Source: an uncultured Alphaproteobacteria bacterium
GTDB lineage: Bacteria > Pseudomonadota > Alphaproteobacteria > HIMB59 > GCA-002718135
Assembly (NCBI GenBank): GCA_902577905.1
Contig: CACHAQ010000001.1
Location: 9,861 to 73,860, forward strand
Direction of reading: 5' to 3'
DNA length: 64,000 nucleotides
Numbering within the stretch: the stretch's first letter is position 1; every line of letters begins with the position of its first letter. A program made the translations under genes and the position numbers. This document shows, piece by piece, positions 1 to 15,024 of this stretch. A model generated the notes under the pieces. That model did not search any database. It was given only the letters and a program-made list of their open reading frames with translations, and was not told where the DNA came from.

Positions 1-366
1 GATCAATGGCATCATGGCTTATCAACTTTAGTAATGACCTGTAGATCATATGGCTTAAGAGCAATAGACGGACCCTTTGGAGACTTTAATGACAAACAAG
101 GATATCTTGATGCAGCAAAAAGAGCGGCAGCAATTGGTTTTGAGGGTAAATGGGCAATACATCCATCGCAAATAGATTTAGCTAATGAAGTTTTTTCTCC
201 ACCCAAAGAAGAAATAGATAAAGCAAAAAGAATATTATTAGAATTGGAAAAGGCAGCAGCTGAAGGAAAGGGTGCTGCTCAGCTTGATGGAAGAATGATC
301 GATGCTGCATCTGCTAGAATGGCTGAAAATGTTGTAAATATTAATAAGTTAATTGAAAGTAAGTAA
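1..366 (+). CDS. mcl: Malyl-CoA lyase (HpcH/HpaI aldolase/citrate lyase family), 5'-truncated by window edge
   Basis: Frame open from base 1 (DQWHHGLSTLVMTCR...); motifs AIDGPFGDF, GFEGKWAIHPSQI, GRMIDAAS; directly upstream of mtkAB. Confidence 0.85.
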   Translation, partial: DQWHHGLSTLVMTCRSYGLRAIDGPFGDFNDKQGYLDAAKRAAAIGFEGKWAIHPSQIDLANEVFSPPKEEIDKAKRILLELEKAAAEGKGAAQLDGRMIDAASARMAENVVNINKLIESK

Positions 367-1526
367 TGGACATACACGAATATCAAGCAAAAAAAATATT
401 GTCCGATTTTGGAGTTAAAATTCCCACTGGTGGTATTGTTTATAGTCCAGAAAATGCAGAAAATAAAGCGAGAGAAATTGGTGGTTCAAAATGGGTTGTA
501 AAAGCGCAAGTTCACTCTGGTGCTAGAGGTAAAGCGGGAGGAATTATAATATGTAATTCTCCGTTAGAAGTTGCTGATGCAACTGATAAATTGTTAGGTA
601 AAAAATTAATTACAAACCAAACTGGTCCAGAGGGTAAGATAATAAATAGAATTTATATTGAAGAAGCAACTGATATCAAACATGAATTATATTTAGGTTT
701 AGTGTTTGATAGATCTTCAGAAAGTATAATGGTTGTAGCCTCAACAGAAGGTGGAATGAGTGTCGAAGAAATTTCAAAAGAAAAACCTGAAACAATTATA
801 CGATCTAAAATTGAAGTAGCAGTTGGTATTCAACAATTTCAAGCAAGAGAAATAGCTTTTGGTTTAGGAATTGAATCCAAATTGATCTCAAGAGCAGCAA
901 ATACAATTATTGGTTGTTATAAAGCTTTTAGTGAGCTTGATGCAACAATGGTTGAAGTTAATCCATTAGTTGTATCACACCAAGATGAAATACTAGCATT
1001 AGATTGTAAAATGAGTTTTGATAATAATGCAATGTTTAGAAGAGATGAAATTGCAGAACTTAGAGATAAAACACAAGAAAATTCAAATGAAGTTTATGCT
1101 TCTGACAGAGGAATGAATTATGTAAGTCTAGATGGGAATATTGGTAATATTATTAATGGTGCAGGCTTAGCAATGGCTTCAATGGATATGATAAAACTTG
1201 CTGGTGGTGAACCTGCAAATTTTTTAGATGTTGGCGGAGGTGCAACACCTGAAAAAATAGTTAAAGCTTTTAAATTAATCTCTATGGACACAAAAGTTAA
1301 GGTGATATTAGTTAATATCTTTGCAGGGATTAACAGATGTGATTGGGTTGCAGAAGGAATTGTTCAAGCTTTATCAAAAATTGAAATTAAACATCCTTTA
1401 GTTATACGTTTAGCTGGAACTAACGTCGAAAAGGGAAATGAAATACTTAAAAAAAGCAATATAAATTACATTGAAGCATCAACTTTAGAAGATGCAGCAA
1501 ATAAAGCAGTGAAGGCTCTTGGATAA
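366..1526 (+). CDS. mtkA: Malate--CoA ligase (malate thiokinase) beta subunit, SucC family
   Basis: MDIHEYQAK, KAQVHSGARGKAGG, NGAGLAMA, NIFAGINRCDWVAEG (Mtk-type rather than SucC NIFGGIxRCD); TAATG coupling to mcl. Confidence 0.85.
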   Translation: MDIHEYQAKKILSDFGVKIPTGGIVYSPENAENKAREIGGSKWVVKAQVHSGARGKAGGIIICNSPLEVADATDKLLGKKLITNQTGPEGKIINRIYIEEATDIKHELYLGLVFDRSSESIMVVASTEGGMSVEEISKEKPETIIRSKIEVAVGIQQFQAREIAFGLGIESKLISRAANTIIGCYKAFSELDATMVEVNPLVVSHQDEILALDCKMSFDNNAMFRRDEIAELRDKTQENSNEVYASDRGMNYVSLDGNIGNIINGAGLAMASMDMIKLAGGEPANFLDVGGGATPEKIVKAFKLISMDTKVKVILVNIFAGINRCDWVAEGIVQALSKIEIKHPLVIRLAGTNVEKGNEILKKSNINYIEASTLEDAANKAVKALG

Positions 1527-1528
1527 TC

Positions 1529-2425
1529 ATGTCTATAATCATTCACAAAAATACAAAGATTTTAGTCCAAGGATTCACTGGAAAAATTGGAAGTTTTCAT
1601 GCTGAAGAAATGATTAAGTATGGTTCTAACGTTGTTGGCGGGGTAACACCTGGAAAGGGTGGCATGACTCATTTAAATCTTCCTGTTTTTAATACTGTTA
1701 AAGAAGCTGTAGATCAAACTGGAGCATCAACATCAATTTTATTTGTTCCACCAGCCTTCGCAGCTGACTCAGCAATGGAAGCTGCTGATGCAGGTATTAA
1801 GACCTGTGTGGCTATTACTGACGGTATTCCTTCACATGATATGGTTAAAATAAAAAGATACATGAGAAGATATCCAAAAGATAAAAAAATGGGATTAGTA
1901 GGTCCGAATTGTGCAGGAATAATTAGCCCTGGTAAATCTATGTTAGGTATTATGCCTGGTCATATCTACAAAGAAGGTAAAATAGGAATAGTTAGTAGAT
2001 CTGGCACTTTGGGATATGAAGCTGCACAACAACTTAAAGATTTGGAAATTGGTGTTTCAACAAGTGTAGGTATAGGAGGCGATCCAATAAATGGAAGTTC
2101 TTTTAGAGATATAATTGAAAAGTTTGAAAATGATGATGAAACTATTGCAGTTTTAATGATAGGTGAAATAGGTGGTCCACAAGAAGTTGAAGCTGGAAAA
2201 TTTGCTAAAGAAAATATGAGTAAACCGGTAATTGCGTATATAGCAGGACTAACTGCACCAAAAGGTCGTGTGATGGGGCATGCTGGCGCAATTGTTTCTG
2301 CTTATGGTGAAAGTGCAATAGAAAAAGTAGAACTTCTTAAAGAGTGTGGGGTTACAATTTCCAAAAACCCTTCTGTAATGGGTGAAACTGTTAAAAAAGT
2401 ATTAGTAGAAAATAATTTGAATTAA
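1529..2425 (+). CDS. mtkB: Malate--CoA ligase alpha subunit, SucD family
   Basis: QGFTGKIGSFH, GPNCAG, SRSGTLGYE, MGHAGA phospho-His motif; follows mtkA. Confidence 0.85.
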   Translation: MSIIIHKNTKILVQGFTGKIGSFHAEEMIKYGSNVVGGVTPGKGGMTHLNLPVFNTVKEAVDQTGASTSILFVPPAFAADSAMEAADAGIKTCVAITDGIPSHDMVKIKRYMRRYPKDKKMGLVGPNCAGIISPGKSMLGIMPGHIYKEGKIGIVSRSGTLGYEAAQQLKDLEIGVSTSVGIGGDPINGSSFRDIIEKFENDDETIAVLMIGEIGGPQEVEAGKFAKENMSKPVIAYIAGLTAPKGRVMGHAGAIVSAYGESAIEKVELLKECGVTISKNPSVMGETVKKVLVENNLN

Positions 2426-2440
2426 TATAATTAAAAAATA

Positions 2441-2578
2441 ATGAAATTTTTATATAAAAATGAATTCTGGATGTTAATATTTTCTCTAGGTGTTCTTTAT
2501 TGGTTATTTAATCCATCAGTCTTAACAACCTTAGTTATGATTGTACCATTGCTATTGGCCGTTTCCTCCCGTAAATAA
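2441..2578 (+). CDS. Putative 45-aa small membrane protein (not in ORF track)
   Basis: ATG..TAA, MKFLYKNEFWMLIFSLGVLYWLFNPSVLTTLVMIVPLLLAVSSRK; fills an otherwise empty gap after mtkB. Confidence 0.55.
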   Translation: MKFLYKNEFWMLIFSLGVLYWLFNPSVLTTLVMIVPLLLAVSSRK

Positions 2579-2632
2579 AGCTAAGTTTTATACTACTGAT
2601 GCTTGAATGTTTATCGTATTTATAGCTAAAAA

Positions 2633-3196
2633 ATGAAATTATATCTTATTAGACATGCAGAGTCAGAAGCTAATGCAGCATCAGATTTAGATAATCCAAC
2701 TTATTATTATGATGCAAGAATTACTCAAAGAGGAGTTCAGCAAGCAAAAAAATTAAATAATAGAATTAAAAATCTCAAATTTGATAATTATTTTTGTTCC
2801 CCCTTAACAAGAACATTGGAAACATTCTCTATTGTTTTTCCATCTAATAAACCGGTAATTGAACCATTAATAAGAGAACATTTGTATCACTCATGTGATG
2901 TAGGAAGACAACCAAAAAAATTAAAAAAAGAATTTAATGATTTTGATTTTAATAATTTAAATGATTTTTGGTGGAATAATAACAAACCTATTAATGAAAA
3001 AAAAATTATACAAGAGTCTCACAATGATATTAAAATTAGATTAAGGTCTTTTCTGCTATCTATTAAAAACCTTAATTTACAAAAAATTGTATTAGTCAGT
3101 CACGGTACATTCTTAAGTCAAATAACTGAATATATGCTGGATAACTGTGAGGTATATGATTGTGAGTACAATGAGGTATACGAAAAATTTTTTTAA
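2633..3196 (+). CDS. Histidine phosphatase (phosphoglycerate mutase-like) family protein
   Basis: LIRHAES, SPLTRTLET, LVSHG motifs. Confidence 0.85.
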   Translation: MKLYLIRHAESEANAASDLDNPTYYYDARITQRGVQQAKKLNNRIKNLKFDNYFCSPLTRTLETFSIVFPSNKPVIEPLIREHLYHSCDVGRQPKKLKKEFNDFDFNNLNDFWWNNNKPINEKKIIQESHNDIKIRLRSFLLSIKNLNLQKIVLVSHGTFLSQITEYMLDNCEVYDCEYNEVYEKFF

Positions 3197-3219
3197 TTTA
3201 ATTCTTGATAAATAAAAAT

Positions 3220-3972
3220 CTAAAACATTTCATTTATTATTTTATTTAATTTTTGTGTTACTCTATCAATTATTTTTTTTCCTATCTGTGCATTGGATTT
3301 TCTAGGATCTCCAATAATTCCACTTTTACTTAATTCTTTAGTTACCCAAGCTTTCTTAATATTTTTCTCATAAGAAATGGTTTTAGATGATAAATAATCG
3401 GAAGATAATCTATGTTTAGAAATTTTAGATAGCCTAACTAGGTTTGGAAATAAATATAACATAATAGATGTTTCAAATTCTCCACCGTGATAACCAAAGT
3501 CTTTTTCTTTACTTGATATAATTCCTTTAAATTGATCAAATAAAAAATATGTGCCTTTTACTATGTTTATCTTAAATTCTGATTTCAATTCTTTAGCAAT
3601 AATATCTATATGGCTAATTTGTCCACCATGACTATTTAAAAGTAATATGTTTTTAAATTTCAATTTACATACATTTTCTATAATTGACAAAGAGTGCGAT
3701 ATAAATTCCAATGAATCAATACTTATTGTTCCATCAAAATCTGTATGTTCAGCAGCTGAACCAAAATATATTTCAGGCATAATTAAATATTTATTTGAAT
3801 TATATTTTTTATTGAATTCTAATAATATTCCTTCAAGAATTTTTTTATCAGTATTTAATGGAAGATGCGGACCGTGTTGTTCTATTGATGAAAATGGGAA
3901 AATTAAAACTGTTTTTCTATTTATTTTTTTAATTTCATATGTTGTTAATTCTTCCCAAAAGTTTGTTAGCAT
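3220..3972 (-). CDS. Creatininase-family amidohydrolase (formamidopyrimidine deformylase-like)
   Basis: SIEQHGPHLPLNTD, EH, NSHGGQ, HGGEFETS, SGIIGDP; likely start MLTNFWEE at 3972 (track start 3987). Confidence 0.85.
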   Translation of the reverse strand: MLTNFWEELTTYEIKKINRKTVLIFPFSSIEQHGPHLPLNTDKKILEGILLEFNKKYNSNKYLIMPEIYFGSAAEHTDFDGTISIDSLEFISHSLSIIENVCKLKFKNILLLNSHGGQISHIDIIAKELKSEFKINIVKGTYFLFDQFKGIISSKEKDFGYHGGEFETSIMLYLFPNLVRLSKISKHRLSSDYLSSKTISYEKNIKKAWVTKELSKSGIIGDPRKSNAQIGKKIIDRVTQKLNKIINEMF

Positions 3973-4000
3973 TTTTTTATTATACATTTATAAGTAAATT

Positions 4001-4960
4001 ATGAAATCTTATTCTTTATGGATTGATAAAAAAAAACAAGCTAAAATTTATCAAAAAAAACTTGTTTACAATAAAAATAACAAAACAGTTTTAGTTAAAA
4101 CTATTTACTCAGGTATTAGCAAGGGAACTGAAAAATTAGTTTCATCTAAAAGCGTAAGTAAGGATCAATTTGAATTAATGAAAGCCCCTTTTCAAGAGGG
4201 TTCTTTTAATTTACCTATAAAATACGGTTATATAAATGTTGGGAATATTGTCGATGGCCCAAGGAAATATATAAATAAAAAAATATTTAGTCTTTATCCT
4301 CATCAAGATTTATATGAAATTTCTATTCAAAATTTAATTTTTTTACCAAAAGGAAATTTGAGAAAATATGTTCTAACTGCAAATATGGAAACAGCAATTA
4401 ATATCTTTTGGGACGCACAATCTAAAAGTAATAACAAAATTCTAATTGTAGGACTTGGCTCTGTAGGATTATTAACTGCATTTTTTTTTAAAATTAATGG
4501 ATATAAAAATGTCTATGTTTTTGATAATAATAAAAATAAAAGAAAAATTGCCAACTATTTAGGATTAAATTTTATTGATATAATAAAGATTGAGAAAATA
4601 GATGTAGCAATAAACACTACAGCTAATTATAAAGTTCTAAATTCTTTAATGGAAAAATTATCTATCGAAGGAAAAATAGTAGAAGCTAGTTGGTATGGTA
4701 AAAATAAAGGAGAAGTTGCCTTAGGTGGGTATTTTCATTCTAAAAGATTAAAAATTATTAGCTCACAGGTATCTAAAATACCAAAATACATGAAAAATAA
4801 ATATGATTTTGAGGGGAGATTAAAATTAGCAATTAAATCTTTAAAAAATTCAAAATTAGAAAAATTAATTACTAGTGAAAGTAATTTTTTTGATTTAGAA
4901 AAAGATTACTATAAAATCCTTCAAAATAAAGATACAATAATGCATCTAGTTAAATATTAA
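4001..4960 (+). CDS. MDR-superfamily (alcohol dehydrogenase-like) oxidoreductase lacking catalytic Zn ligands
   Basis: YSGISKGTE, PIKYGY in place of GHE, GLGSVG Rossmann motif, EASWYG, FHSKRLKIISSQV. Confidence 0.8.
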   Translation: MKSYSLWIDKKKQAKIYQKKLVYNKNNKTVLVKTIYSGISKGTEKLVSSKSVSKDQFELMKAPFQEGSFNLPIKYGYINVGNIVDGPRKYINKKIFSLYPHQDLYEISIQNLIFLPKGNLRKYVLTANMETAINIFWDAQSKSNNKILIVGLGSVGLLTAFFFKINGYKNVYVFDNNKNKRKIANYLGLNFIDIIKIEKIDVAINTTANYKVLNSLMEKLSIEGKIVEASWYGKNKGEVALGGYFHSKRLKIISSQVSKIPKYMKNKYDFEGRLKLAIKSLKNSKLEKLITSESNFFDLEKDYYKILQNKDTIMHLVKY

Positions 4961-4962
4961 TT

Positions 4963-5361
4963 ATGTATTCGATAAAAGTAAGAGAAAATATTCTAATAGC
5001 TCATTCTTTACCTGGAGAAGTATTTGGACCAGCCCAAAATATGCATGGAGCTACATATTTAGTAGATGCAGAATTTTTCACTGATAAACTTAATAAATAC
5101 AATATAATTATGGATTTAGGAATAGTGTCCACGACTTTAAAAGATATTCTTAAAATATATAATTATCAAAATTTAGATGAGATTGATGAATTTAAGGGAA
5201 AAATTACCTCAACAGAGTTTTTAGCAGAGGATATTTGCAATAAGATCTTGAATAGACTAAGAAATGAATTCTCTGAAGATTACAAATCTTTAAAAAAAAT
5301 TAAAATAACTTTGCAAGAATCAAATGTTGCATGGGCATCATATGAAAAAGAGGTTATCTAA
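4963..5361 (+). CDS. 6-pyruvoyl-tetrahydropterin synthase/QueD family T-fold protein (PTPS-IV type)
   Basis: AHSL...FGPAQNMHGATY, NLDE, TSTEFLA, LQES; no catalytic Cys before HG. Confidence 0.85.
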   Translation: MYSIKVRENILIAHSLPGEVFGPAQNMHGATYLVDAEFFTDKLNKYNIIMDLGIVSTTLKDILKIYNYQNLDEIDEFKGKITSTEFLAEDICNKILNRLRNEFSEDYKSLKKIKITLQESNVAWASYEKEVI

Positions 5362-6388
5362 AAATAAATCTTATATTTATTTTGTTTATCCAGGAAATAT
5401 TAATGCAAAAACTGGAGGATATATTTATGAAAAAAATATCCTAGAATATGCAAAGATAAGGGATATAAATATTAGACCAATTGCGCTAAGTGAAAATTAT
5501 CCTTTTCCTAGAAATAACGATATAAAATATTTTCTAAAAATTTTAGATAAAATTGATCCTGACTCTAAAATTATAATCGATGGATTAGCTTTAGAAGGAA
5601 TGTATTCCATTTTTAAAAAAATACTTACTTATAATGTTATCGCGCTAATACATCATCCTTTATATCTTGAATTTAAAGGTCAAAGGTCAAAAAAATTCTT
5701 GAGATTAGAAAAAGAAAATTTCAAAAAAATAAATAAATTTATTGTTACATCTAAAAATACAAAAAATTTATTAATAAATGAATTTAAGGTTCTAAATAAT
5801 AAAATATCTGTAGTTGAACCTGGGATAGAAAGACTAGCAAATTATAATTTTAAAAATAATAGTAAAATTCATCTTTTAACATGTGGAAGTATAATAAATA
5901 GAAAAAATTATCTTTTTTTATTAAAAGTTTTAAAGCCTTTAGATAATTTTATTTTAGAAATTGTTGGTGATACCACAAGAGATATAGGTTATTACAAAAA
6001 ACTCAAAAAATTTATTTCTAAAAATTCAATGAACAGAAAAATAATATTCCACGGTACTATTTCAGATACAAAATTAGCAAAATTATATTCTAAAACAGAT
6101 TGTTACATTTCGGTAAGTAAATATGAAGGTTTTGGAATGTCTTTAGCAAATGCATTAATAATTAAAAAGCCAATTATAACCTTTTTTACAAATACTATCT
6201 TAAATACACTAGGAAAAAAGGGTGTTATTTATTTCAAAAAATTTGAAGTAAATGATCTTAGAAATATAATTATTAAAAATATATTAAATAAAAAAAATTT
6301 TAATAAACTAAATATTGATATTAAAAAAAATAAAAGATATCTTCTTACTCCTCTAGAGTCAGCTAAGAAATTTTTTAATTTAATTTAA
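5342..6388 (+). CDS. Glycosyltransferase family 4 (GT-B)
   Basis: TGGYIYE, IIDGLA, IHHPL, RKNY, YEGFGMSLANA; start 5342 or 5324. Confidence 0.85.
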   Translation: MKKRLSKNKSYIYFVYPGNINAKTGGYIYEKNILEYAKIRDINIRPIALSENYPFPRNNDIKYFLKILDKIDPDSKIIIDGLALEGMYSIFKKILTYNVIALIHHPLYLEFKGQRSKKFLRLEKENFKKINKFIVTSKNTKNLLINEFKVLNNKISVVEPGIERLANYNFKNNSKIHLLTCGSIINRKNYLFLLKVLKPLDNFILEIVGDTTRDIGYYKKLKKFISKNSMNRKIIFHGTISDTKLAKLYSKTDCYISVSKYEGFGMSLANALIIKKPIITFFTNTILNTLGKKGVIYFKKFEVNDLRNIIIKNILNKKNFNKLNIDIKKNKRYLLTPLESAKKFFNLI

Positions 6389-6389
6389 T

Positions 6390-7178
6390 ATGCATGAATT
6401 TCAAAATAAATGGTTAAATCTTAGAGAAACTGTCGATAGAAATTCAAGAAACAAAAGCATACTATATTTAATTAATAAATTTTTTAAAAATAAAAAAAAT
6501 ATTAGAATAATTGATTTGGGTTCAGGCGCTGGATCCAATTATAGATTTCTTAAGTCACGATTATTAAATAATCAATATTGGTCTTTTGTAGACATATCAC
6601 ATCAATCAACAAATTATTTTAAAGAAAATATAAAATTATCTTCTAAAATAAAAAAAACTAATTTTAAAATTGTTGATGTAATTAATAATTTAGAAAAAAT
6701 AAATTTTAATGATTATAATTTAGTTACAGGATCTGCTTTTTTAGATATTCTTCCAAAAATATGGTTCAAAAATTTTCATAAATTAAATCTTGATACGGAA
6801 ATTGTCTATTTTGCTTTAAATTATAACGGTAATTTTAAATTTTTTCCAAAACACAATGATGATAAAAAAATTCTTAATATATTTAATAAAGATCAAAAAT
6901 CTGACAAAGGAATAGGGGAATTGGCCGTTGGACCAGATTGTACTGAATTAATAAATAAATTATTTAAAAGAACTCACAAAACATATGTTTTAGACTCTAC
7001 ATGGGATGTTAGTAAAAATTATGAATTTCAAATTTATTTTTTAAATTTTTGTAGAGAAATTATTCAAAAAAATAAACTTAACTTTGATGATTGGTTACAA
7101 TTTCGTTTAAAAAGTATTAAAGAAAAAAATTCTAGATTTATTTTAAATAATACAGATTTTTTAGCTATTAAGAAATAA
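6390..7178 (+). CDS. Class I SAM-dependent methyltransferase-like protein
   Basis: WLNLRETVD N-terminus, IIDLGSGAGSN motif I, VTGSAFLDIL. Confidence 0.75.
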   Translation: MHEFQNKWLNLRETVDRNSRNKSILYLINKFFKNKKNIRIIDLGSGAGSNYRFLKSRLLNNQYWSFVDISHQSTNYFKENIKLSSKIKKTNFKIVDVINNLEKINFNDYNLVTGSAFLDILPKIWFKNFHKLNLDTEIVYFALNYNGNFKFFPKHNDDKKILNIFNKDQKSDKGIGELAVGPDCTELINKLFKRTHKTYVLDSTWDVSKNYEFQIYFLNFCREIIQKNKLNFDDWLQFRLKSIKEKNSRFILNNTDFLAIKK

Positions 7179-7994
7179 ATTAACAATAATTTCATTTTCT
7201 AATTCATTAAAATTATGTTTGGGTCTGATAGCTTTATTGAGATTTGAAATTTCTTTTAAATTTAATGAATTAATTCCAGAGCCTATTAATATTGGGGCAA
7301 TCATAAATTGAAGAATATCAATATATTTATTATTTATTAATTCTGAAATAGTTTTTGATCCTCCCTCTACTAAAATATTATTATATTTAAGTTTTTTTAT
7401 TTGCGTAATAAAGTTTTTAGTAAAATTTTTTTCTTTTAATCTTATTATTGTTGAATTATTCAATCTAATATTTTTATTACTTTTTGTAAAAATTATATTT
7501 TCATTACCGTCATTAAATATTTTATATTTGTTATTTAGCGAAAGACTGCCATCGATAATAATTCTTTTTGGATTTGTGCCCTTTATTTTTCTTGTTGTTA
7601 ATAGAGGATCGTCTTTTTTAATGGTATTTGAGCCTACAATAATTCCATCACTGATACTTCGTAAACAATGTAGATAAATAATACTCTTAGGATTATTTAT
7701 GTAATGTGAATTACCATTATTTAATGCAATTCTACCATCAATACTTTGTCCTATCTGAGCTAGAACTAATTTTTTGTTTTTTCTTAATATTGGGAGAAGG
7801 ATATTTAAGATTGATTGATAAAATTTACTTATATTAACTTTAGATACCAGATTATTATTTTTTATGTAAAAATTACTTTTTCTTTTTGATGACAAAGAAA
7901 TACTATTTTTTTTAACCAATAAATATAAATCACTATTCTTTTTAGAATTTTTTATAAAATCTAGTAAAATTCCTATATTTTTAGATGTAATCAT
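7161..7994 (-). CDS. RibD C-terminal-domain (pyrimidine reductase/DHFR-fold) protein without deaminase domain
   Basis: QIGQSIDGRIA, HCLRSISDGIIVG, DDPLLTTR, LVEGG, APILIGSG; no HAE/PCxxC deaminase motif. Confidence 0.85.
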   Translation of the reverse strand: MITSKNIGILLDFIKNSKKNSDLYLLVKKNSISLSSKRKSNFYIKNNNLVSKVNISKFYQSILNILLPILRKNKKLVLAQIGQSIDGRIALNNGNSHYINNPKSIIYLHCLRSISDGIIVGSNTIKKDDPLLTTRKIKGTNPKRIIIDGSLSLNNKYKIFNDGNENIIFTKSNKNIRLNNSTIIRLKEKNFTKNFITQIKKLKYNNILVEGGSKTISELINNKYIDILQFMIAPILIGSGINSLNLKEISNLNKAIRPKHNFNELENEIIVNLFLNS

Positions 7995-8030
7995 TTGTTT
8001 TTATTTCAATTATATCTATATAAAGTTTTC

Positions 8031-9152
8031 ATGAGTTTCAAATCTAATACAGGAACTATAATTGATAGGGCAATTAACGAACTCAGGACCGGAAGACCCT
8101 TAATAATACAAAATAACAAGGAATATTGGATGTTCTTTAATATAGAGCATTCCCAAAGTAAAATTTTTAATCAATTCAATAAGCACTTAATTGATGAAAA
8201 ATATCTACTTATTACTAAACAAAAAGCTCAATCAATTTTTAATAAGAATATTAAAAGTAATATTTATTTTGAGATAAATCCCAAAACAGATGTAAATCAA
8301 ATAATAAATTTATTTGTCAATCCTCTTAGCAATAATAAAGTAATTAAATTTACCAATATTAAAAAATTCAAATCTACAAATTTTCATAATGTTTGTATCG
8401 ATCTATCCAAAAATGCTAAAATGATACCATCGCTAGTTTTTAAAAAAATTAATAAAAAATATTACAAAAATATAAATGAATTTGGATTTAAGAATGGAAT
8501 TTTAATATTTGATTACAAAGATTTATTGAAGCAAAATGAATTAATTTGTGAAAGTATTAAATTAGTTTCTAGTGCAAAAGTTCCACTACCAAAAAATGAA
8601 AATTCTAATTTTAAAATATTCAAATCATATATTGGATCTGATAAACATGTAGCGATAATTGTTAATCCAAAAAAAATAAATAAAAAATCTGTTAATTTAA
8701 GAATACATTCAGCTTGTTTTACAGGTGATATTTTTCATTCTTTAAAATGTGATTGTGGTGAACAATTAAATCAATCAATCAATTACATGGTTAGAAATAA
8801 TGGTGGAATTATATTATATTTAGAACAAGAAGGTAGGGGAATAGGATTAGCTAATAAAATGAGAGCTTATTCTCTTCAAGCAAGGGGTATGGATACAATA
8901 GACGCCGATCATAATATTGGTTTTTTAGATGATGAAAGAGATTTTAATATTGCAGCTAGAATACTGAAATTATTAAAAATAAATAAAGTTAATCTTATTA
9001 CAAACAACAAAAATAAAATTAATTCTATTAAGAAAGCTGGAATTAAAGTCGAAAATCAAATAAATACAAAGCCAACATTAAATAAATTTAATAAAAATTA
9101 TTTTAAAACAAGAGTTAAAAAAGCTGGTTACGGTCTTAAACTAGTAGTATAA
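8031..9152 (+). CDS. ribA: GTP cyclohydrolase II with degenerate RibB-like N-terminal domain
   Basis: RIHSACFTGDIFHSLKCDCGEQL (three Zn Cys), QEGRGIGLANKMRAY, DERDF, LITNN; N-terminus RAINELRTGRP lacks the DHBP-synthase RENEGD motif; ATG at 8031. Confidence 0.9.
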   Translation: MSFKSNTGTIIDRAINELRTGRPLIIQNNKEYWMFFNIEHSQSKIFNQFNKHLIDEKYLLITKQKAQSIFNKNIKSNIYFEINPKTDVNQIINLFVNPLSNNKVIKFTNIKKFKSTNFHNVCIDLSKNAKMIPSLVFKKINKKYYKNINEFGFKNGILIFDYKDLLKQNELICESIKLVSSAKVPLPKNENSNFKIFKSYIGSDKHVAIIVNPKKINKKSVNLRIHSACFTGDIFHSLKCDCGEQLNQSINYMVRNNGGIILYLEQEGRGIGLANKMRAYSLQARGMDTIDADHNIGFLDDERDFNIAARILKLLKINKVNLITNNKNKINSIKKAGIKVENQINTKPTLNKFNKNYFKTRVKKAGYGLKLVV

Positions 9153-9154
9153 TT

Positions 9155-9598
9155 ATGAAAAAAATTCCCAAGATAAAACTTCAATTAACAAACGATAATG
9201 AGTTTGATTCATCTAATTTAAAGAATAAAACAGTTTTATTCTTTTACCCTAAGGCGTTAACTGGTGGATGCTCAGTAGAAGTTGCAGATTTTCAAAAATA
9301 TTTAACAAAATTTAATAAAATTGGCTTTGATGTAATTGGAGCTTCTAAAGATCCTGTTGATCGGAATAAAAAATTTTCAGATAAGTATAAATTGAAATAC
9401 CCACTTGGTTCGGATGAAGGAAAAAATTGTGATAAACTTGGTATTTGGATAGAAAAATCTATGTATGGTAGGAAATATTTTGGGATAGATAGATCTACAT
9501 TTGTAATCGATAAAAATGGAAAAATTCTAAATTCTTGGAATAAAGTTAAAGTTAAAGGTCATGTTGAAGAAGTTTATAATTTTTGTAAGGATCAGTGA
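9155..9598 (+). CDS. bcp: Peroxiredoxin (BCP/PrxQ)
   Basis: FFYPKALTGGCSVE, EKSMYGRKYFGIDRSTF, VKVKGH. Confidence 0.9.
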   Translation: MKKIPKIKLQLTNDNEFDSSNLKNKTVLFFYPKALTGGCSVEVADFQKYLTKFNKIGFDVIGASKDPVDRNKKFSDKYKLKYPLGSDEGKNCDKLGIWIEKSMYGRKYFGIDRSTFVIDKNGKILNSWNKVKVKGHVEEVYNFCKDQ

Positions 9599-9602
9599 AT
9601 TT

Positions 9603-10496
9603 TTACTTAATCTTACCTATTTCTTTTTCTCTTTTTATTACAAATAAACCACTTAACGTAATAATTATTGCACCAATAATCATATTATAAGTTGGAGTTT
9701 CACCTAGTATTAAATATCCAAAAATCATACCAAATATAATAACACTGTATCTTGCAGAGGCGGTTAATGAGAGTGGTGCATAAAAAACTGTTAATACTGA
9801 AAATAAATATCCGAATAAAACAAATATACTAGAAGCAAGAATATAATTTACATCTTCACCGCTTACTTGATAACCAAAAATAATTGAACCCAACCCTGCA
9901 AACCCAGTAATTAACAATGCTGTCACAAATGTAATTTCAACACTATTTGATTTAGTTGCTAAACTTTTTGTAGCAATATCTCTAATAGTTAAAAAAATAG
10001 CAGCTAAAATTGGTAACACTAAAAGATAATTAAATTGAAAATTTTGTGGATTTACAACTACTAACACACCTAAAAACCCAATAATAACTGCACACCATCT
10101 TCTAATTCCAACTTTCTCTCCCAAAAAAAGAAAAGCAAATATTGTAACAAAGAAAGGATTAGTCATTAAAAGTGTATAAACCTCAGATATTGGAAGTAAT
10201 ATTAATCCAACCAAAAAAAATAATGCCGTTAAAACTTCATACAAACCTCTTATATGAAAACTTTTGATTGATAGTATTTTAATTAAATTCTTTTTTTCGA
10301 AAAAAACTAAATATAAACCTAATAAACTTGATGTAACTAAACCTCTTAAAAAAATTACAGAATATAATGAATTGTCATCACCTATATTTTTTACAACAAG
10401 TTTGACATAACTATCATTTATAGAGAATGATAATTGGCCAGCCATCATAAAAAATACACCTATCGTCCCAACTGAAAATAAAATCTTGCTTTTCAT
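9603..10496 (-). CDS. DMT/EamA family transporter
   Basis: About 10 TM segments, LGEKVGIRRW motif. Confidence 0.85.
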   Translation of the reverse strand: MKSKILFSVGTIGVFFMMAGQLSFSINDSYVKLVVKNIGDDNSLYSVIFLRGLVTSSLLGLYLVFFEKKNLIKILSIKSFHIRGLYEVLTALFFLVGLILLPISEVYTLLMTNPFFVTIFAFLFLGEKVGIRRWCAVIIGFLGVLVVVNPQNFQFNYLLVLPILAAIFLTIRDIATKSLATKSNSVEITFVTALLITGFAGLGSIIFGYQVSGEDVNYILASSIFVLFGYLFSVLTVFYAPLSLTASARYSVIIFGMIFGYLILGETPTYNMIIGAIIITLSGLFVIKREKEIGKIK

Positions 10497-10520
10497 AATA
10501 AAAAAAAATATTTAACTGAT

Positions 10521-11855
10521 ATGTTACAAAGAAATACTTCCAGCCATTTATATGGATTTACTGACTTGAAGTCATTAAATGAAAGAGGCCCTTTAGTTAT
10601 TTCTTATGGAAAAGGAATATATGTTTACGATACTAAAGGTAATAAATATCTAGATGGGAATTCTGGTCTATGGAATCAGTGTGCTGGTTTTGACCATCCT
10701 GGATTAGTTGAAGTTGCAAAAAAACAGTATGAAAAATTTGCTGGTTATCATTCTTTATTTGGAAGATTGTCTGAAGAAACTTTACAGCTATCTGAAAAAA
10801 TTATTGAAGTATCACCTTTTGATCAAGGTCGTGTATTCTTTTGTAATTCAGGATCTGAAGCAAATGACACTATGGTCAAAATGTTATGGATGTTAAATGC
10901 AAGAATTGGAAAGCCAAATAGACGAAAAATTATAACAAGAATTAATGGATATCATGGCGTTACTTTAGGAGCTTCTTCAATGACTGCCAAACCATACAAT
11001 AAAGAGTTTGGTTTACCATCTGAAGAATTTATTCACATTGAATGTCCTCATTATTGGAAATATGGATTAGAGAATGAAACGGAAGAACAATTTTCACTTA
11101 GGATGGCCAAAAATTTAGAAGAAAAAATCATCAAAGAGGATCCAGAAACTATTGCAGGTTTTGTTGCAGAACCTGTTCAAGGTGCAGGAGGTTGTATACC
11201 TCCTTCAAAATCGTATTTTGATTTAGTTCAACCTATATTAAAAAAATTTAATATTCCTTTTATCGCAGATGAAGTAATTTGTGGATTTGGTAGAACGGGA
11301 AATTTATGGGGCTGCGAAACCTACAATATCAAACCGGATATAATTATCTCATCTAAATGTTTAACAGCTGGGTACTTTCCTATGGGTGCAGTTATAGTTA
11401 ATAAAGAATTTTCAGATAAATTTGTTGAAGTATCAGAAGAAGCAGAAGAATTTCCACATGGTTTTACAGCTGGTGGTCATCCTGTTGGATGTGCAATTGC
11501 TTTGAAAGCAATAGATGTAATTATGAATGAGGGTTTATTAGATAATGTAAAATTGATGGAACCCTATTTTTTTGAAAGATTAAATGAATTTAATGATTAT
11601 GAACACATTGGAGAAACTAGAGGTATAGGTCTAATGGCTGCTTTAGAGATGGTAAAAAATAAAGATACAAAAGAACCATTTGAAGGTCATCTTAACATGG
11701 GAGATAAAGTTGCTAATTTATCAATTGATAATGGATTAATTTGCAGACCTTTAGGTCCAGCAATTGTTTTGTGTCCTCAATTCATAATTACTAAAAATCA
11801 AATTGATGAAATATTTGATTCTCTTCATAAAACTATACAGCAAATTTTTAATTAA
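10521..11855 (+). CDS. Class III PLP aminotransferase (omega-amine:pyruvate transaminase type)
   Basis: LYGFTD, DGNSGLWN, NSGSEAND, DEVICGFGRTG, SSKCLTAG (PLP Lys), FPHGFT. Confidence 0.9.
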   Translation: MLQRNTSSHLYGFTDLKSLNERGPLVISYGKGIYVYDTKGNKYLDGNSGLWNQCAGFDHPGLVEVAKKQYEKFAGYHSLFGRLSEETLQLSEKIIEVSPFDQGRVFFCNSGSEANDTMVKMLWMLNARIGKPNRRKIITRINGYHGVTLGASSMTAKPYNKEFGLPSEEFIHIECPHYWKYGLENETEEQFSLRMAKNLEEKIIKEDPETIAGFVAEPVQGAGGCIPPSKSYFDLVQPILKKFNIPFIADEVICGFGRTGNLWGCETYNIKPDIIISSKCLTAGYFPMGAVIVNKEFSDKFVEVSEEAEEFPHGFTAGGHPVGCAIALKAIDVIMNEGLLDNVKLMEPYFFERLNEFNDYEHIGETRGIGLMAALEMVKNKDTKEPFEGHLNMGDKVANLSIDNGLICRPLGPAIVLCPQFIITKNQIDEIFDSLHKTIQQIFN

Positions 11856-12148
11856 GTTTCGTATTTAACTATAAAACCTGAATACTTAACATTACTAATG
11901 ATACTATTTGGAATAACTCCTTCAACTAGAGCTAGCGATGGCCCATCTTTAGATTTTTCAGTAATAGATAGTATACTTTGCATATCTCCTTGAATTATGG
12001 CCTCTACCTCATCTTTACTTTCTTTATTTTGAATATATCCATTTAATCCCAAAGATATTGCTAAATCACTAAACCAATGCCTAAAGCCCACTCCCTGAAC
12101 TTTTCCTTTAATGATAAGTCGATAAGTTTTTATTTCATTTGTATTCAT
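11852..12148 (-). CDS. acyP: Acylphosphatase
   Basis: GKVQGVGFR and GYIQN motifs; likely start MNTNEIK at 12148. Confidence 0.85.
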   Translation of the reverse strand: MNTNEIKTYRLIIKGKVQGVGFRHWFSDLAISLGLNGYIQNKESKDEVEAIIQGDMQSILSITEKSKDGPSLALVEGVIPNSIISNVKYSGFIVKYET

Positions 12149-12201
12149 TGAAGTATCAATATAAGTACTTTTTTTTATCATACAATCCTTCAATTCATTA
12201 T

Positions 12202-13080
12202 ATGAAAAAAAGTATAATCTATTCTTCAATTCTTTTATTTTTTGCTGGAATTTTTTTTGTAACAAATGATGCAATAATAAACTATCTATCCCAAACAGAT
12301 GTAAAATTTTATCATTTCATCTTTTATGGAATACCCATATTTTTATGTTTCCCTTTATATTTATTAATTAATGGAACTTTAAAAAAAAATATAAAATGTA
12401 CTAATTATCTTCCACCTATTTTCAGAGGTTTTTTAAATATTCCATTGCCTTTTATTGCTTTTATAACTCTCGAACAAATTAAACTTCCAGAATTCACAAC
12501 ATTGAATATGACTGCACCATTAATGGGAACAATATTTGCTATTTTTTTACTAAATGAAAAATTAAATATTTTGACTTATCTTTCTTTATTTATTGGTTTC
12601 TTAGGAGTTTTGTTTGTTATTCAGCCAGGTTTTGAAAGCTTTAATATCTATTATTTAATTGTCCTTATTGGAGTTTTTTTAATTACCGTAACAACATTTA
12701 TAGTAAATAAATATAGTCATGTAACAACAAATATTGGTTATTTTTTGTATGGTGGTTTTTTTGTTCATTTAATTTCAATACCTTTATTTTTAATGAATCC
12801 ATTAAAAGTGACTTTTTTAGATTTTTTATTAATTTTAACTGCTGCATTATTTATTAACTCAGCTATGTTTTTTGCAACAACTGCATTTAAAATTGCACAA
12901 CAACATTATGCATCAGTATTTAGCTTAGTTTACCTTCAGGTATTGTGGTCATCACTAGTTGGAATATTTATATTTAATGAATATATGAATTTATATGCTT
13001 ATATTGGAGCAATATTTATTGTTTTAAGTGGAATTGTTTCATTACCTTCACAAATAAAACAATTAAAAGAAGCTGAATAA
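12202..13080 (+). CDS. DMT/EamA family transporter
   Basis: About 10 TM, LLNEKL, IQPG; likely start MKKSII at 12202. Confidence 0.8.
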   Translation: MKKSIIYSSILLFFAGIFFVTNDAIINYLSQTDVKFYHFIFYGIPIFLCFPLYLLINGTLKKNIKCTNYLPPIFRGFLNIPLPFIAFITLEQIKLPEFTTLNMTAPLMGTIFAIFLLNEKLNILTYLSLFIGFLGVLFVIQPGFESFNIYYLIVLIGVFLITVTTFIVNKYSHVTTNIGYFLYGGFFVHLISIPLFLMNPLKVTFLDFLLILTAALFINSAMFFATTAFKIAQQHYASVFSLVYLQVLWSSLVGIFIFNEYMNLYAYIGAIFIVLSGIVSLPSQIKQLKEAE

Positions 13081-13803: not shown

Positions 13804-14607
13804 TTAAAAATCTATTTTCTTATTTTTTTCAGCTGCATAATTAACTACAAATTGCCACGCTGACCTACCTGTTCTATTACCTCTTTGCAAACTCCATTTA
13901 ATTGCTTCTTTTTCTGTATCTTTATTAAATGACATATTAAACTTCTCACAATATTTACTAATGATATTAATAAAATCATTTTGAGAAATATTATGAAAAC
14001 CAATCCATAAACCAAATCGATCACTTAGACTTATTTTTTCTTCAACACTTTCATCTGTATGAATCGCAGAAGATCTTTCATTTTCTATCATATCCCTAGG
14101 CATTAAATGTCTCCTATTTGAGGTAACATATAAAATAATATTTTTAGGTTGATTTTGTATACTTCCATCTAAAGTAGATTTAATTATTTTGTAATCACTA
14201 TCTATTTTTTCAAATGATAAATCATCAATAAAAATTATAAAATTAAAATTTTTTAAATTTGCATATTTTTCGTAAATTATTTCAATATCAAAAATATTGT
14301 TCTTATTTAATTGTATTAATTTTAAGTTTTTATTTTTTTTGTTTACTTCATTAAAAACAGATTTAATTAGAGAACTTTTACCATTACCTCTAGATCCCCA
14401 TAGTAAAGCATTATTTGTAAAATTACCTTCTGAAAAATTTACTGTATTATTTAATATAGTTTTTTTCTGCCTTTCTACTCCAACCAGAAGATCTAAATCC
14501 AAACATCTAAAATTCGATATTATTTTGAGATTTTTTATTTTACCATCCCAAATAAAAGCACTTCCTCTTGAGACAGTAAGATTTGATAAAAAATTGCTTA
14601 AAAACAT
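13804..14607 (-). CDS. DUF815 family AAA+ ATPase
   Basis: WGSRGNGKSS Walker A, FIDDLSF, TSNRRHL, EEKISLSDRFGL; typical alphaproteobacterial position divergent from yajC. Confidence 0.9.
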   Translation of the reverse strand: MFLSNFLSNLTVSRGSAFIWDGKIKNLKIISNFRCLDLDLLVGVERQKKTILNNTVNFSEGNFTNNALLWGSRGNGKSSLIKSVFNEVNKKNKNLKLIQLNKNNIFDIEIIYEKYANLKNFNFIIFIDDLSFEKIDSDYKIIKSTLDGSIQNQPKNIILYVTSNRRHLMPRDMIENERSSAIHTDESVEEKISLSDRFGLWIGFHNISQNDFINIISKYCEKFNMSFNKDTEKEAIKWSLQRGNRTGRSAWQFVVNYAAEKNKKIDF

Positions 14608-14682
14608 AATAAATACTTTATTTGATTTTTCTTATTACACAGTATAATAAATCACTCAAATTAAATCATCATAGGTACTATT

Positions 14683-15024
14683 ATGGAAGCTTTTGGAACA
14701 TTTTTACCACTTATTTTAATATTTGTAGTTTTTTATTTTTTATTAATTAGACCTCAACAAAGAAAAGTTAAACAGCATAAAGAAATGCTTTCTAATTTAA
14801 AAAGAGGGGATAAAATAGTAACTTCAGGTGGAATTATTGGAACTATAAATAAGGTTGCAGATAATAGAGAATTAACTTTAGAAGTTGCAGATAATGTTGA
14901 AATTAAAATTGCATCAGGAATGGTTGCAGATTTATACGCAATGCCAGAAGTTCAAAAAAAAGAACCGACAAAAGAAGAGAATAAAAGTAAATCTGGCTTC
15001 TCTTTATTTTCTAGAAAAAAATAA
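14683..15024 (+). CDS. yajC: Preprotein translocase subunit YajC
   Basis: FYFLLIRPQQ, GDKIVTSGGIIG. Confidence 0.95.
   Translation: MEAFGTFLPLILIFVVFYFLLIRPQQRKVKQHKEMLSNLKRGDKIVTSGGIIGTINKVADNRELTLEVADNVEIKIASGMVADLYAMPEVQKKEPTKEENKSKSGFSLFSRKK

Follow-up and report, generated by a model that had tools for sequence, protein, structure and literature searches.

The window analyzed here is an AT-rich stretch of 64,000 nucleotides (assembly GCA_902577905.1, contig CACHAQ010000001.1, positions 9,861 to 73,860 of the forward strand) from an uncultured alphaproteobacterium, and the named relatives of the locus described below are single-cell and metagenome genomes of SAR11/Pelagibacterales. Seven adjoining genes at positions 3220 to 9152 of this window are read, with a probability of roughly 0.6, as one module through which GTP would branch off from riboflavin synthesis at the first intermediate and be converted into a glycosylated and methylated pterin or pyrimidine compound. 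An orphan GTP-derived pathway with these two modifications, of the type of Streptomyces coelicolor SCO6650/SCO6655 and separate from the synthesis of riboflavin and of queuosine, had been proposed in the initial annotation of the locus; it survived all the tests that could be computed, and the product is one that we infer.

Composition and conservation of the module

Open reading frames (ORFs) of the window were typed against Pfam and NCBIfam profiles. The module starts with a creatininase-family metal hydrolase (3220 to 3987, minus strand; Pfam Creatininase, E = 1.4e-54), followed by an MDR-like, zinc-less NAD(P) dehydrogenase/reductase (4001 to 4960, plus strand) that gave weak matches in Pfam (ADH_zinc_N, 24.7 bits, under the cutoff) and to BchC. 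The third gene encodes a PTPS homologue, a T-fold protein of the PTPS-IV type and orthologue of SCO6650 (4963 to 5361, plus strand; Pfam PTPS, E = 9e-21), and the fourth a GT4 glycosyltransferase (5324 to 6388, plus strand; Glycos_transf_1, E = 4.4e-18). A class I S-adenosylmethionine-dependent methyltransferase-like protein (6390 to 7178, plus strand; weak Pfam match, E = 4e-4), a stand-alone RibD_C reductase with no deaminase domain (7161 to 7994, minus strand; RibD_C, E = 1.7e-29), and a GTP cyclohydrolase II (GCH II) of 385 residues (7995 to 9152, plus strand; GTP_cyclohydro2, E = 1.6e-48 over residues 193 to 356) complete the set. The module is preceded by an eighth gene, encoding a histidine phosphatase (His_Phos_1, branch 1; 2633 to 3196, plus strand; Pfam E = 2.3e-22), and followed by bcp, encoding a Bcp-type thiol peroxidase (9155 to 9598, plus strand; AhpC-TSA, E = 1.5e-26). 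The eight ORFs from the histidine phosphatase to GCH II were found at the coordinates and in the families first assigned to them. Their abutting or overlapping arrangement was likewise borne out, with gaps from the phosphatase gene through bcp of 23, 13, 2, −38, 1, −18, 0, and 2 nucleotides, the last being the distance from the cyclohydrolase gene to bcp.

The PTPS-IV family comprised 1,059 representatives (50% identity clusters) at E ≤ 0.001 and 415 at E ≤ 1e-10. A scan for loci, with one genome per species, matched at least 600 stretches and confirmed 597 of them, and the counts reported here are from the best 80 loci, in which all stop-to-stop ORFs were searched by phmmer with seeds from four taxa. 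These loci were from SAR11, other Alphaproteobacteria, Gamma- and Betaproteobacteria, Actinomycetota, Bacteroidota, and Gemmatimonadota. Many of the 80 are short, and a full-flank set of 51 loci of at least 19 kb, with taxon labels assigned by hand, was counted alongside. The families were found together across phyla, as the proposed co-occurrence required: genes for GT4, MDR, and the methyltransferase were present in 74, 71, and 68 of the 80 loci, respectively, and each of the three accompanied PTPS-IV in 49 of the 51 full loci. Creatininase was present in 44 of 80 loci (32 of 51), GCH II in 43 of 80 (34 of 51, within 10 kb), and RibD_C in 30 of 80 (22 of 51). A CDP-alcohol phosphatidyltransferase (CDP-OH_P_transf) occurred in 48 of the 80 loci and 40 of the 51, a flippase-like LPG_synthase_TM protein in 41 and 33, and sulfatase/LtaS-like and FkbM genes in 18 and 12 of the 80. 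The core genes stood together in Pseudomonadota, Actinomycetota, and Gemmatimonadota. In Bacteroidota, short contigs carried PTPS-IV with GT4 and/or the methyltransferase only, and one locus from this phylum had PTPS-IV without any other module family. The histidine phosphatase, noted earlier as adjacent, and bcp are no conserved partners of the module: the former was found in only 5 of the 80 loci, all of them from close SAR11 relatives, and the latter beside the module in only 3 (tblastn).

The whole stretch from sucD to an EamA-family gene was syntenic in the close relatives. Another SAR11 genus had the seven genes in the same order (creatininase on the minus strand, MDR, PTPS, GT4, and methyltransferase on the plus strand, RibD_C on the minus strand, and GCH II on the plus strand), flanked by a glutathione S-transferase gene and a tRNA on one side and by a CMD/AhpD-like gene and an MFS transporter on the other. 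The position of bcp was held in that genus by the CMD/AhpD-like gene, and the histidine phosphatase was absent from the module context. Retention of the seven-gene order in different neighborhoods indicated that the module moves as a block. The conserved unit is, therefore, the seven genes at 3220 to 9152, while the histidine phosphatase and bcp are neighbors in this genus only. Purifying selection acts on all eight genes, with ratios of nonsynonymous to synonymous substitution (dN/dS) of 0.03 to 0.26 relative to two close relatives (0.004 to 0.011 for sucD). The dS values of the eight genes were 0.06 to 0.33, below those of sucD (0.33 to 0.40) except in one comparison (histidine phosphatase against locus L015, 0.33). 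The G+C content of the module was 22.5% versus 28.8% for the genome, within the lowest 0.8% of 1,185 windows of 6.5 kb. We note that the low G+C content and a dS below that of sucD are compatible with recent spread by recombination.

Within the order, 29 of 41 relatives had a PTPS-IV match; among genomes with a completeness of at least 85% the count was 32 of 51, and with at least 90% it was 10 of 22. A closed genome of the other SAR11 genus, 99% complete, gave no match, indicating that the module is accessory in that genus. Five genomes of the same genus as the source also gave no match. In three of these, sucD was placed near the expected site, and all three contigs end no more than 2.6 kb from sucD: one (G054) carries sucD and the histidine phosphatase, creatininase, and MDR genes and ends 43 bases past the last of these, another (G046) ends inside the creatininase gene, and the third (G049) ends 331 bases past sucD. 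The apparent absence of PTPS-IV from G054 and G046 is an assembly break. Two allele classes of PTPS-IV, approximately 98 to 100% and approximately 70% identical, were also seen in one genus; together with the breaks, these classes give the region around window positions 4960 to 5400 the look of a site where strains vary, so that assemblies fragment there and PTPS-IV seems absent more often than it is.

The module is flanked upstream by sucCD and downstream, beyond bcp, by the EamA-family transporter (9603 to 10496, minus strand; EamA, E = 3e-20) and a class III aminotransferase. The transporter is a possible exporter with a weak link to the module; an EamA gene was present in 4 of the 80 loci and 3 of the 51 full loci and adjoins the MDR gene in a Granulosicoccus locus (L047). 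Fourteen metatranscriptome runs from 12 studies contained 0.27 to 0.35 of the sampled words of positions 2633 to 9600, from which no conclusion on transcription is drawn. As a separate observation, genes for GCH II adjoin peroxide defense genes three times, which may be chance: bcp follows the module (9155 to 9598), the glutathione S-transferase and CMD/AhpD-like genes surround it in the other genus (L019:7455-8153 and 14598-15005), and katG lies two genes from a stand-alone ribA in the source genome (L094:3710-5845).

Early enzymes and the housekeeping riboflavin genes

In the source genome (1.45 Mb in 49 contigs, 87% complete), GCH II is represented by three homologues and RibD_C by two. A search for a separate rib operon was successful: contig C6 carries nrdR, a bifunctional ribD, ribE, ribBA, ribH, and nusB in a row, and a stand-alone ribA, which scores above the cutoffs of the RibA models, lies on contig C3. 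The module GCH II is the third GCH II homologue and the module RibD_C a second copy beside the bifunctional ribD; the module genes are not the only ribA and ribD copies, since the separate operon and the stand-alone ribA exist. The GCH II half of RibBA (C6:24299-25402) is degenerate, scoring 43.6 bits against a cutoff of 205.85 for the ribA domain model and having a Tyr region that could not be aligned; the housekeeping role as cyclohydrolase, therefore, probably falls to the stand-alone ribA on C3. The initial annotation was correct in stating that the module is not a riboflavin operon. The deaminase, lumazine synthase, and riboflavin synthase lie outside it, and it holds only RibD_C and a RibB remnant lacking the DRENEGD loop, while ribD, ribE, ribBA, and ribH are together on C6. 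A plain second riboflavin operon was rejected as a candidate, the complete rib set having been found elsewhere in the genome.

The GCH II domain aligned over its full length with Escherichia coli RibA (PDB entry 2bz0; E = 9.9e-42), kept the cysteines of the HSAC...CDCG motif (HSxC...CDC), and scored 217.9 bits on the RibA subfamily model NF001591 (cutoff, 148), all features of a canonical GCH II. A Tyr aligned to Y105 of E. coli RibA was retained, and the Tyr replacement of the SCO6655 type is thus absent from the window protein. The same Tyr was kept in 10 of 10 nonactinobacterial cluster copies, 8 of them accompanied by a creatininase gene; the 33 actinobacterial cluster copies had Met (29) or His (4) at this position, and 32 of these were accompanied by a creatininase gene. 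Work by Spoonamore in 2006 is said to have found that a Tyr-to-Met change at the Y105 equivalent leads to release of FAPy. The N-terminal region of the window protein, approximately 187 residues, matched two RibB motifs of the genome's own RibBA in a multiple alignment, with the central part of RibB and its acidic DRENEGD loop missing; a BLASTP comparison of this domain with the same RibBA gave nothing significant. On this alignment the domain is a degenerate RibB remnant, in keeping with the earlier statement that no active RibB is present in the module. The alignment also placed the conserved start of GCH II probably at the ATG at 8031.

In the creatininase-like protein, residues E36, H38, D47, and H120 and the His of the HGGxFETS motif aligned to E34, H36, D45, H120, and H178 of the Pseudomonas creatininase, which we take to be metal ligands; the position of creatininase E122 is occupied by Gly, as in 3lub. 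The ArfB model gave 30.4 bits on this protein (cutoff, 180). A member of the creatininase family, SMc02977 (BrbF), is described in PMC9478397 as deformylating AFRPP (FAPy) to 2,5-diamino-6-ribosylamino-4(3H)-pyrimidinone 5'-phosphate (DARoPP), as essential for riboflavin synthesis in Sinorhizobium, and as encoded between MarR and CobW genes. Eight creatininase-family genes were found in three Rhizobiales genomes that have a PTPS-IV cluster. Rhizobium terrae (G072) accounted for five of them (L103, L106, and L108 to L110), one in a CobW/MarR context and none adjoining the PTPS-IV cluster; the L106 copy is a probable BrbF orthologue, as it is flanked by CobW and MarR genes. A small, midpoint-rooted maximum likelihood tree was calculated from 19 sequences, among which the SAR11 rows deviate in composition and BrbF itself was not included. 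One clade (support, 96/94; 9 of the 19 sequences) united the cluster copies of SAR11, a gammaproteobacterial metagenome-assembled genome (MAG), and two Gemmatimonadota with L106 and three further Rhizobiales copies, and six actinobacterial cluster creatininases formed a separate clade (99/100). Creatininase and GCH II were both present in 32 of the 51 full loci, GCH II alone in 2, and creatininase alone in none. The strict coupling to GCH II and the grouping with a probable BrbF orthologue support the label of deformylase used in the initial annotation, and the protein is probably a BrbF-type formamidase acting on AFRPP (FAPy). The label thus gained ground, but the SAR11 GCH II keeps its Tyr and may not need a deformylase.

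The RibD_C protein aligned to the reductase domains of 2hxv (Thermotoga RibD) and 2azn (Methanocaldococcus MJ0671) and kept the VEGGSKT motif for NADPH. It scored 114 bits on the bacterial ribD_Cterm model and 87.6 bits on the archaeal reductase model; the genome's own RibD scored 138 and 95.5 bits, a similar ratio, and these hidden Markov model scores do not discriminate substrate preference.

T-fold protein, tailoring enzymes, and proposed route

T-fold proteins bind purine- or pterin-like rings. The PTPS homologue (4963 to 5361) had a single significant PDB match, 3d7j (SCO6650; E = 7.9e-34), with residues 1 to 129 aligned on chain residues 21 to 150, and its motif reads FGPAQNMHGA, containing the FGPAQ signature of PTPS-IV. 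The earlier assignment to the SCO6650/PTPS-IV type is supported by both features. This signature and a neighborhood containing PF00925 are attributed to PTPS-IV in PMC5445326, where the family is mislabeled FolE2. In the module, the GCH II gene lies 2.6 kb downstream of the PTPS-IV gene. The motifs of other PTPS subfamilies are CxxxHGH, CxxxxxHGH, and ExxHGH (PMC5041015). In the window protein, the catalytic HGH is changed to HGA, neither Cys nor Glu occupies the motif position, and the QueD model gave 37.3 bits against a cutoff of 89.25, so that the features of a catalytic PTPS or QueD (PTPS-I, -II, or -III) do not occur here. The description of the protein as lacking Cys holds for the catalytic Cys upstream of the HG motif and not for the whole chain, which has a sole Cys at residue 92. 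Residues invariant in an alignment of 38 diverse family members include S15, F21, G22, A24, H28, T31, D51, L71, and D72, and H14, P23, E85, and E119 were nearly invariant. The Glu at the position of residue 119 is presumably the ring anchor of T-fold enzymes. No second Pfam domain was found in 23 long PTPS-IV-containing proteins. Six chains of 373 to 855 residues (P0123, P0124, P0144, P0146, P0149, and P0159) each had three matched PTPS-IV stretches, in which Pfam counted two or three PTPS stretches and no other domain.

The family of the MDR protein (4001 to 4960) has no solved structure, and the best PDB sequence match had an E value of 0.018. A model was generated with AlphaFold2 from 28 orthologues (predicted local distance difference test score, 90.6), and Foldseek matches to it had E values from 5.8e-17 down, template modeling scores of 0.64 to 0.75 (0.73 to 0.75 for the top matches), and identities of 10 to 18%. 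The top matches were threonine, butanediol, glucose, xylitol, idonate, sorbitol, arabinitol, and galactitol-1-phosphate dehydrogenases and the ribulose-5-phosphate reductase TarJ, and the modeled protein thus has a polyol-dehydrogenase-like fold. At the sites where we take the Cys and GHE zinc motifs of MDR proteins to lie, the family consensus reads SGVSRGTE and KYGY. The zinc ligands are missing and the protein contains no Cys at all, as expected from its first description as a zinc-less dehydrogenase. For the remaining two enzymes, a Rhizobium orthologue of the GT4 protein was weakly similar to EpsE, MshA, and BshA, and the methyltransferase had a DLGSGAGS motif and Atlas features at 0.99 to methyltransferase clusters; Atlas look-ups of the methyltransferase and MDR proteins returned generic names only.

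Clusters outside SAR11 contain additional genes. In Rhizobium terrae and Streptomyces, the gene for the CDP-alcohol phosphatidyltransferase precedes the MDR gene and the flippase-like LPG_synthase_TM gene is in the cluster; the Rhizobium locus additionally has a sulfatase/LtaS-like gene and an FkbM methyltransferase gene. The CDP-alcohol transferase had no equivalog match, and its weak best matches were PgsA, archaetidylinositol-phosphate synthase, and PIP synthase, with scores far under the family cutoffs. CDP-alcohol transferases of the PgsA and PIP synthase types accept polyol phosphates. As most non-SAR11 clusters add membrane enzymes, the product in most of those bacteria is probably lipid linked rather than a free cofactor. 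Both the CDP-alcohol transferase and the flippase-like genes were absent from all nine SAR11 loci (three full-length and six shorter), and the product here would, therefore, be the free head group. In the 87% complete source genome, PF03706 was not found and the sole PF01066 match was at C1:81367, approximately 62 kb downstream of the module. The cluster in SAR11 is thus trimmed: it has lost the lipid genes from its inventory, carries RibD_C, and encodes a GCH II of the Tyr type that bears a RibB remnant.

On the basis of these assignments, the GCH II with its RibB remnant would open GTP to yield DARoPP, and the BrbF-like hydrolase would strip any formyl group left on N5. The RibD_C protein would then reduce the ribosyl to a ribityl 5'-phosphate chain; this reduction would take place without prior deamination, in the archaeal and fungal order, since the deaminase is missing from the module. 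A secondary hydroxyl of the polyol-phosphate chain would be oxidized by the zinc-less, polyol-dehydrogenase-like MDR protein, and oxidation at C2' would give a ketone able to condense with the 5-amino group to a 7,8-dihydropterin. The T-fold protein may bind the aminopyrimidine and help to close or rearrange it, after which GT4 would add a sugar and the methyltransferase a methyl group. In this genus only, the adjacent histidine phosphatase may remove the phosphate. In most other bacteria, the CDP-alcohol phosphatidyltransferase and the flippase-like protein would probably couple the product to a phospholipid and transfer it to the other side of the membrane. The product would keep a 2-amino-4-oxopyrimidine ring, because there is no deaminase and the T-fold protein keeps its nearly invariant Glu119; it could be a neopterin-type pterin or a ring-open ribitylaminopyrimidine precursor, and the ring state is left open. 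A precedent for a pterin made from the GCH II product is given in PMC4161248, in which RibA and TrpF yield dihydroneopterin phosphate in Chlamydia.

Competing readings and known systems

Several observations weigh against the route to a tailored pterin or pyrimidine. The PTPS-IV protein lacks one zinc His as well as the catalytic Cys and may be noncatalytic, a binding protein or isomerase rather than a cyclase. The MDR protein lacks the zinc ligands of the polyol dehydrogenases that it resembles and could be another kind of reductase. Reduction followed by oxidation at C2' merely equals an Amadori rearrangement and is uneconomical. RibD_C was missing from 29 of the 51 full loci, including the typical Streptomyces locus, so that reduction may not be universal or may be supplied from elsewhere, and the Tyr kept in the SAR11 GCH II means that a deformylase may be unnecessary. 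No domain fusions were found, and a search for longer MDR-containing proteins was also empty, which is weak evidence. An Rfam search of window positions 1 to 13000 and seven related loci detected a tRNA and a Streptomyces small RNA and no relevant RNA, in particular no riboswitch that would point to a ligand. Finally, PTPS-IV was present in only two of eight searched genera (15 of 20 and 16 of 24 genomes, versus none of six single-genome genera). Retention in a streamlined oligotroph had been taken as a sign of a valuable product; the module is indeed kept in many genomes, but the argument is weaker than claimed, given this distribution and the absence from the closed genome.

A more specific version of the route was also formulated and is held only tentatively, at well short of an even chance. 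It would be a pterin route without GTP cyclohydrolase I, in which GCH II and the BrbF-type formamidase provide the opened ring, the RibD-type reductase and the zinc-less polyol-type dehydrogenase replace the Amadori step, and the T-fold protein, stripped of catalytic residues, brings about closure of the pyrazine ring. Glycosylation and methylation of the neopterin-like phosphate formed in this way would follow. In most bacteria the compound would become the outward-flipped head group of a novel phospholipid made by the CDP-alcohol phosphatidyltransferase of the cluster, whereas SAR11 would retain the soluble head group only.

A noncyclized pyrimidine glycoside, vicine-like and formed after loss or modification of the ribityl chain, is an unlikely alternative to a pterin. 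Pyrimidine glucosides derived from GCH II are known from plants (vicine and convicine of the faba bean), the module has both a glycosyltransferase and a hydrolase, and PTPS-IV is without the PTPS catalytic residues. However, RibD_C and a polyol-type dehydrogenase imply work on the side chain rather than its removal, and the PgsA/PIP synthase-like CDP-alcohol transferases of other clusters belong to types that accept polyol phosphates. The pyrimidine glycoside also overlaps with the preferred explanation, which leaves the ring state open.

It is quite unlikely that the locus is made up of two unrelated units, with GCH II, the BrbF-like formamidase, and RibD_C forming a second early riboflavin branch, similar to that of BrbF in Sinorhizobium, and MDR, PTPS, GT4, and the methyltransferase making a separate glycoconjugate. 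Such a division would fit the 17 of 51 full loci that have the core genes without GCH II, the degenerate GCH II domain of the canonical ribBA (43.6 bits), and the grouping of the SAR11 creatininase-like protein with the probable BrbF orthologue. It would also fit the requirement for BrbF in riboflavin synthesis in Sinorhizobium meliloti, for which the partner cyclohydrolase is given as unknown in PMC9478397. Against this, the seven genes travel together between two SAR11 contexts. RibD_C (minus strand) and GCH II (plus strand) directly follow the methyltransferase gene in SAR11 and in the gammaproteobacterial MAG, RibD_C alone does so in Rhizobium, and GCH II lies approximately 4 kb further on in a Longimicrobiales locus. 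The affinity of T-fold proteins for purine- or pterin-like rings likewise speaks against the division. Moreover, the module has no deaminase and a stand-alone canonical ribA is present in the genome, and PTPS-IV is linked to PF00925 in the neighborhoods published in PMC5445326.

Supply of the folate pterin by the module, in SAR11 lacking GTP cyclohydrolase I, is very unlikely. A search of 41 genomes from the order, among which 10 are at least 90% complete, found FolE (PF01227) and FolE2 (PF02649) in none, pabBAC-folP-folB-folK is present, and the reductase and polyol-type dehydrogenase could yield dihydroneopterin phosphate. However, PTPS-IV was not found in the closed, 99% complete genome or in six other genera that are also without FolE and FolE2, FolE was present in five of five cluster-bearing non-SAR11 genomes that were searched, and GT4 and the methyltransferase have no role in folate synthesis. 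Replacement of FolE was rejected on this distribution. A very divergent TrpF-like gene adjacent to folK offers a Chlamydia-type bypass instead. On contig C3, outside the window (L094:12139-16880), pabB-pabA-pabC-folP-folB-folK are followed by this gene, which is convergent with folK, encodes 216 residues, and gave approximately 40 bits on PRAI models (cutoffs, 172 to 216); its Pfam PRAI score was 18.6 bits. Contig C4 holds the canonical trpF, which scored 153 bits, and the stand-alone ribA is 9 kb from the TrpF-like gene. The order folP-folB-folK-TrpF-like gene was found in four further genomes from three genera (five of six SAR11 genomes) and not in the closed genome G025, and identity of the TrpF-like protein falls to 37%, in step with FolK (38%). 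By analogy, the TrpF-like gene and ribA suggest a Chlamydia-type route from GCH II and TrpF to the folate pterin in SAR11. A literature search found no paper linking SAR11 to a RibA/TrpF folate bypass, and a 2007 folate survey did not mention Pelagibacter.

The least probable of all is that the module feeds deazaflavin (F420/Fo) synthesis: the order of cyclohydrolase, deformylase, and reductase is that of the archaeal riboflavin/F420 route, but this candidate was rejected because the 87% complete genome has no match to CofH (TIGR03551), the module lacks a deaminase for the 2,4-dioxo pyrimidine that Fo synthase presumably uses, and GT4, the methyltransferase, and lipid-linking genes have no place there. 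PTPS-IV in archaea is stated to serve F420 synthesis in PMC5041015, with unpublished work cited.

The preferred reading, a single module from GTP to a glycosylated and methylated pterin or pyrimidine, would assign functions to four uncharacterized enzyme families if solved and would show what a T-fold protein without a metal site does. The chemistry of SAR11, which ranks among the most abundant bacteria of the ocean, would be extended by a metabolite derived from GTP, and the lipid-linked form, if true, would be a membrane lipid of a new class. No form smaller than that of SAR11, with its seven genes and no membrane enzymes, was found, and it is thus convenient for heterologous expression and in vitro reconstitution.

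Among known systems, assembly of phosphatidylinositol-type head groups (by PIP synthase, a GT4 such as PimA or MshA, and a phosphatase) is an analogy for the non-SAR11 form, which shares with it a CDP-alcohol transferase beside an MshA-like GT4 and a flippase-like protein, all by weak similarities. The cluster differs in having no inositol-phosphate synthase, the alcohol would be GTP derived, and SAR11 is without these genes. Pterin glycosides are made by cyanobacteria and green sulfur bacteria (biopterin glucoside, cyanopterin with a methylated sugar, and tepidopterin) by routes from GTP cyclohydrolase I and a catalytic PTPS. A pterin-type ring and a glycosyltransferase would be shared with these pathways; here FolE is absent and the PTPS homologue is without the Cys and one zinc His. 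The bypass with RibA and TrpF in Chlamydia likewise obtains a pterin from the GCH II product without GTP cyclohydrolase I, and SAR11 similarly lacks FolE and FolE2. It differs in serving folate, and the module has tailoring enzymes and no TrpF-type isomerase, so that the 2'-keto intermediate would be reached, if at all, by reduction and reoxidation or via the T-fold protein.

The orphan status of the PTPS-IV/GCH II cluster is reportedly on record from studies of SCO6655 and SCO6650, and it also follows from neighborhood analyses (PMC5041015 and PMC5445326). The initial annotation had also described the product of the SCO6650/SCO6655 locus as unknown, and in agreement with this, a literature search, with supplements not covered, found no publication naming one. 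The early steps of riboflavin and F420 synthesis in archaea and fungi (ArfB/BrbF and Rib7/ArfC; step order of the riboflavin route in PMC8256712) share with the module a cyclohydrolase, a creatininase-family hydrolase, and a reductase acting without prior deamination. The module differs in having no deaminase, lumazine synthase, or riboflavin synthase, and its intermediates would pass instead to MDR, the T-fold protein, GT4, and the methyltransferase. The closest system is that of S. coelicolor SCO6650 to SCO6655, of the PTPS-IV group of COG0720. In contrast to Streptomyces-type loci, SAR11 has no CDP-alcohol phosphatidyltransferase or flippase-like gene, its GCH II bears a RibB remnant and keeps the Tyr where actinobacterial copies have Met (29) or His (4), and it carries RibD_C, which 23 of the 30 full loci from actinobacteria lack. 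The T-fold orthologue (3d7j) and its FGPAQ signature are shared, and Streptomyces loci have MDR, PTPS-IV, GT4, methyltransferase, creatininase, and GCH II genes in the same relative order as the SAR11 module.

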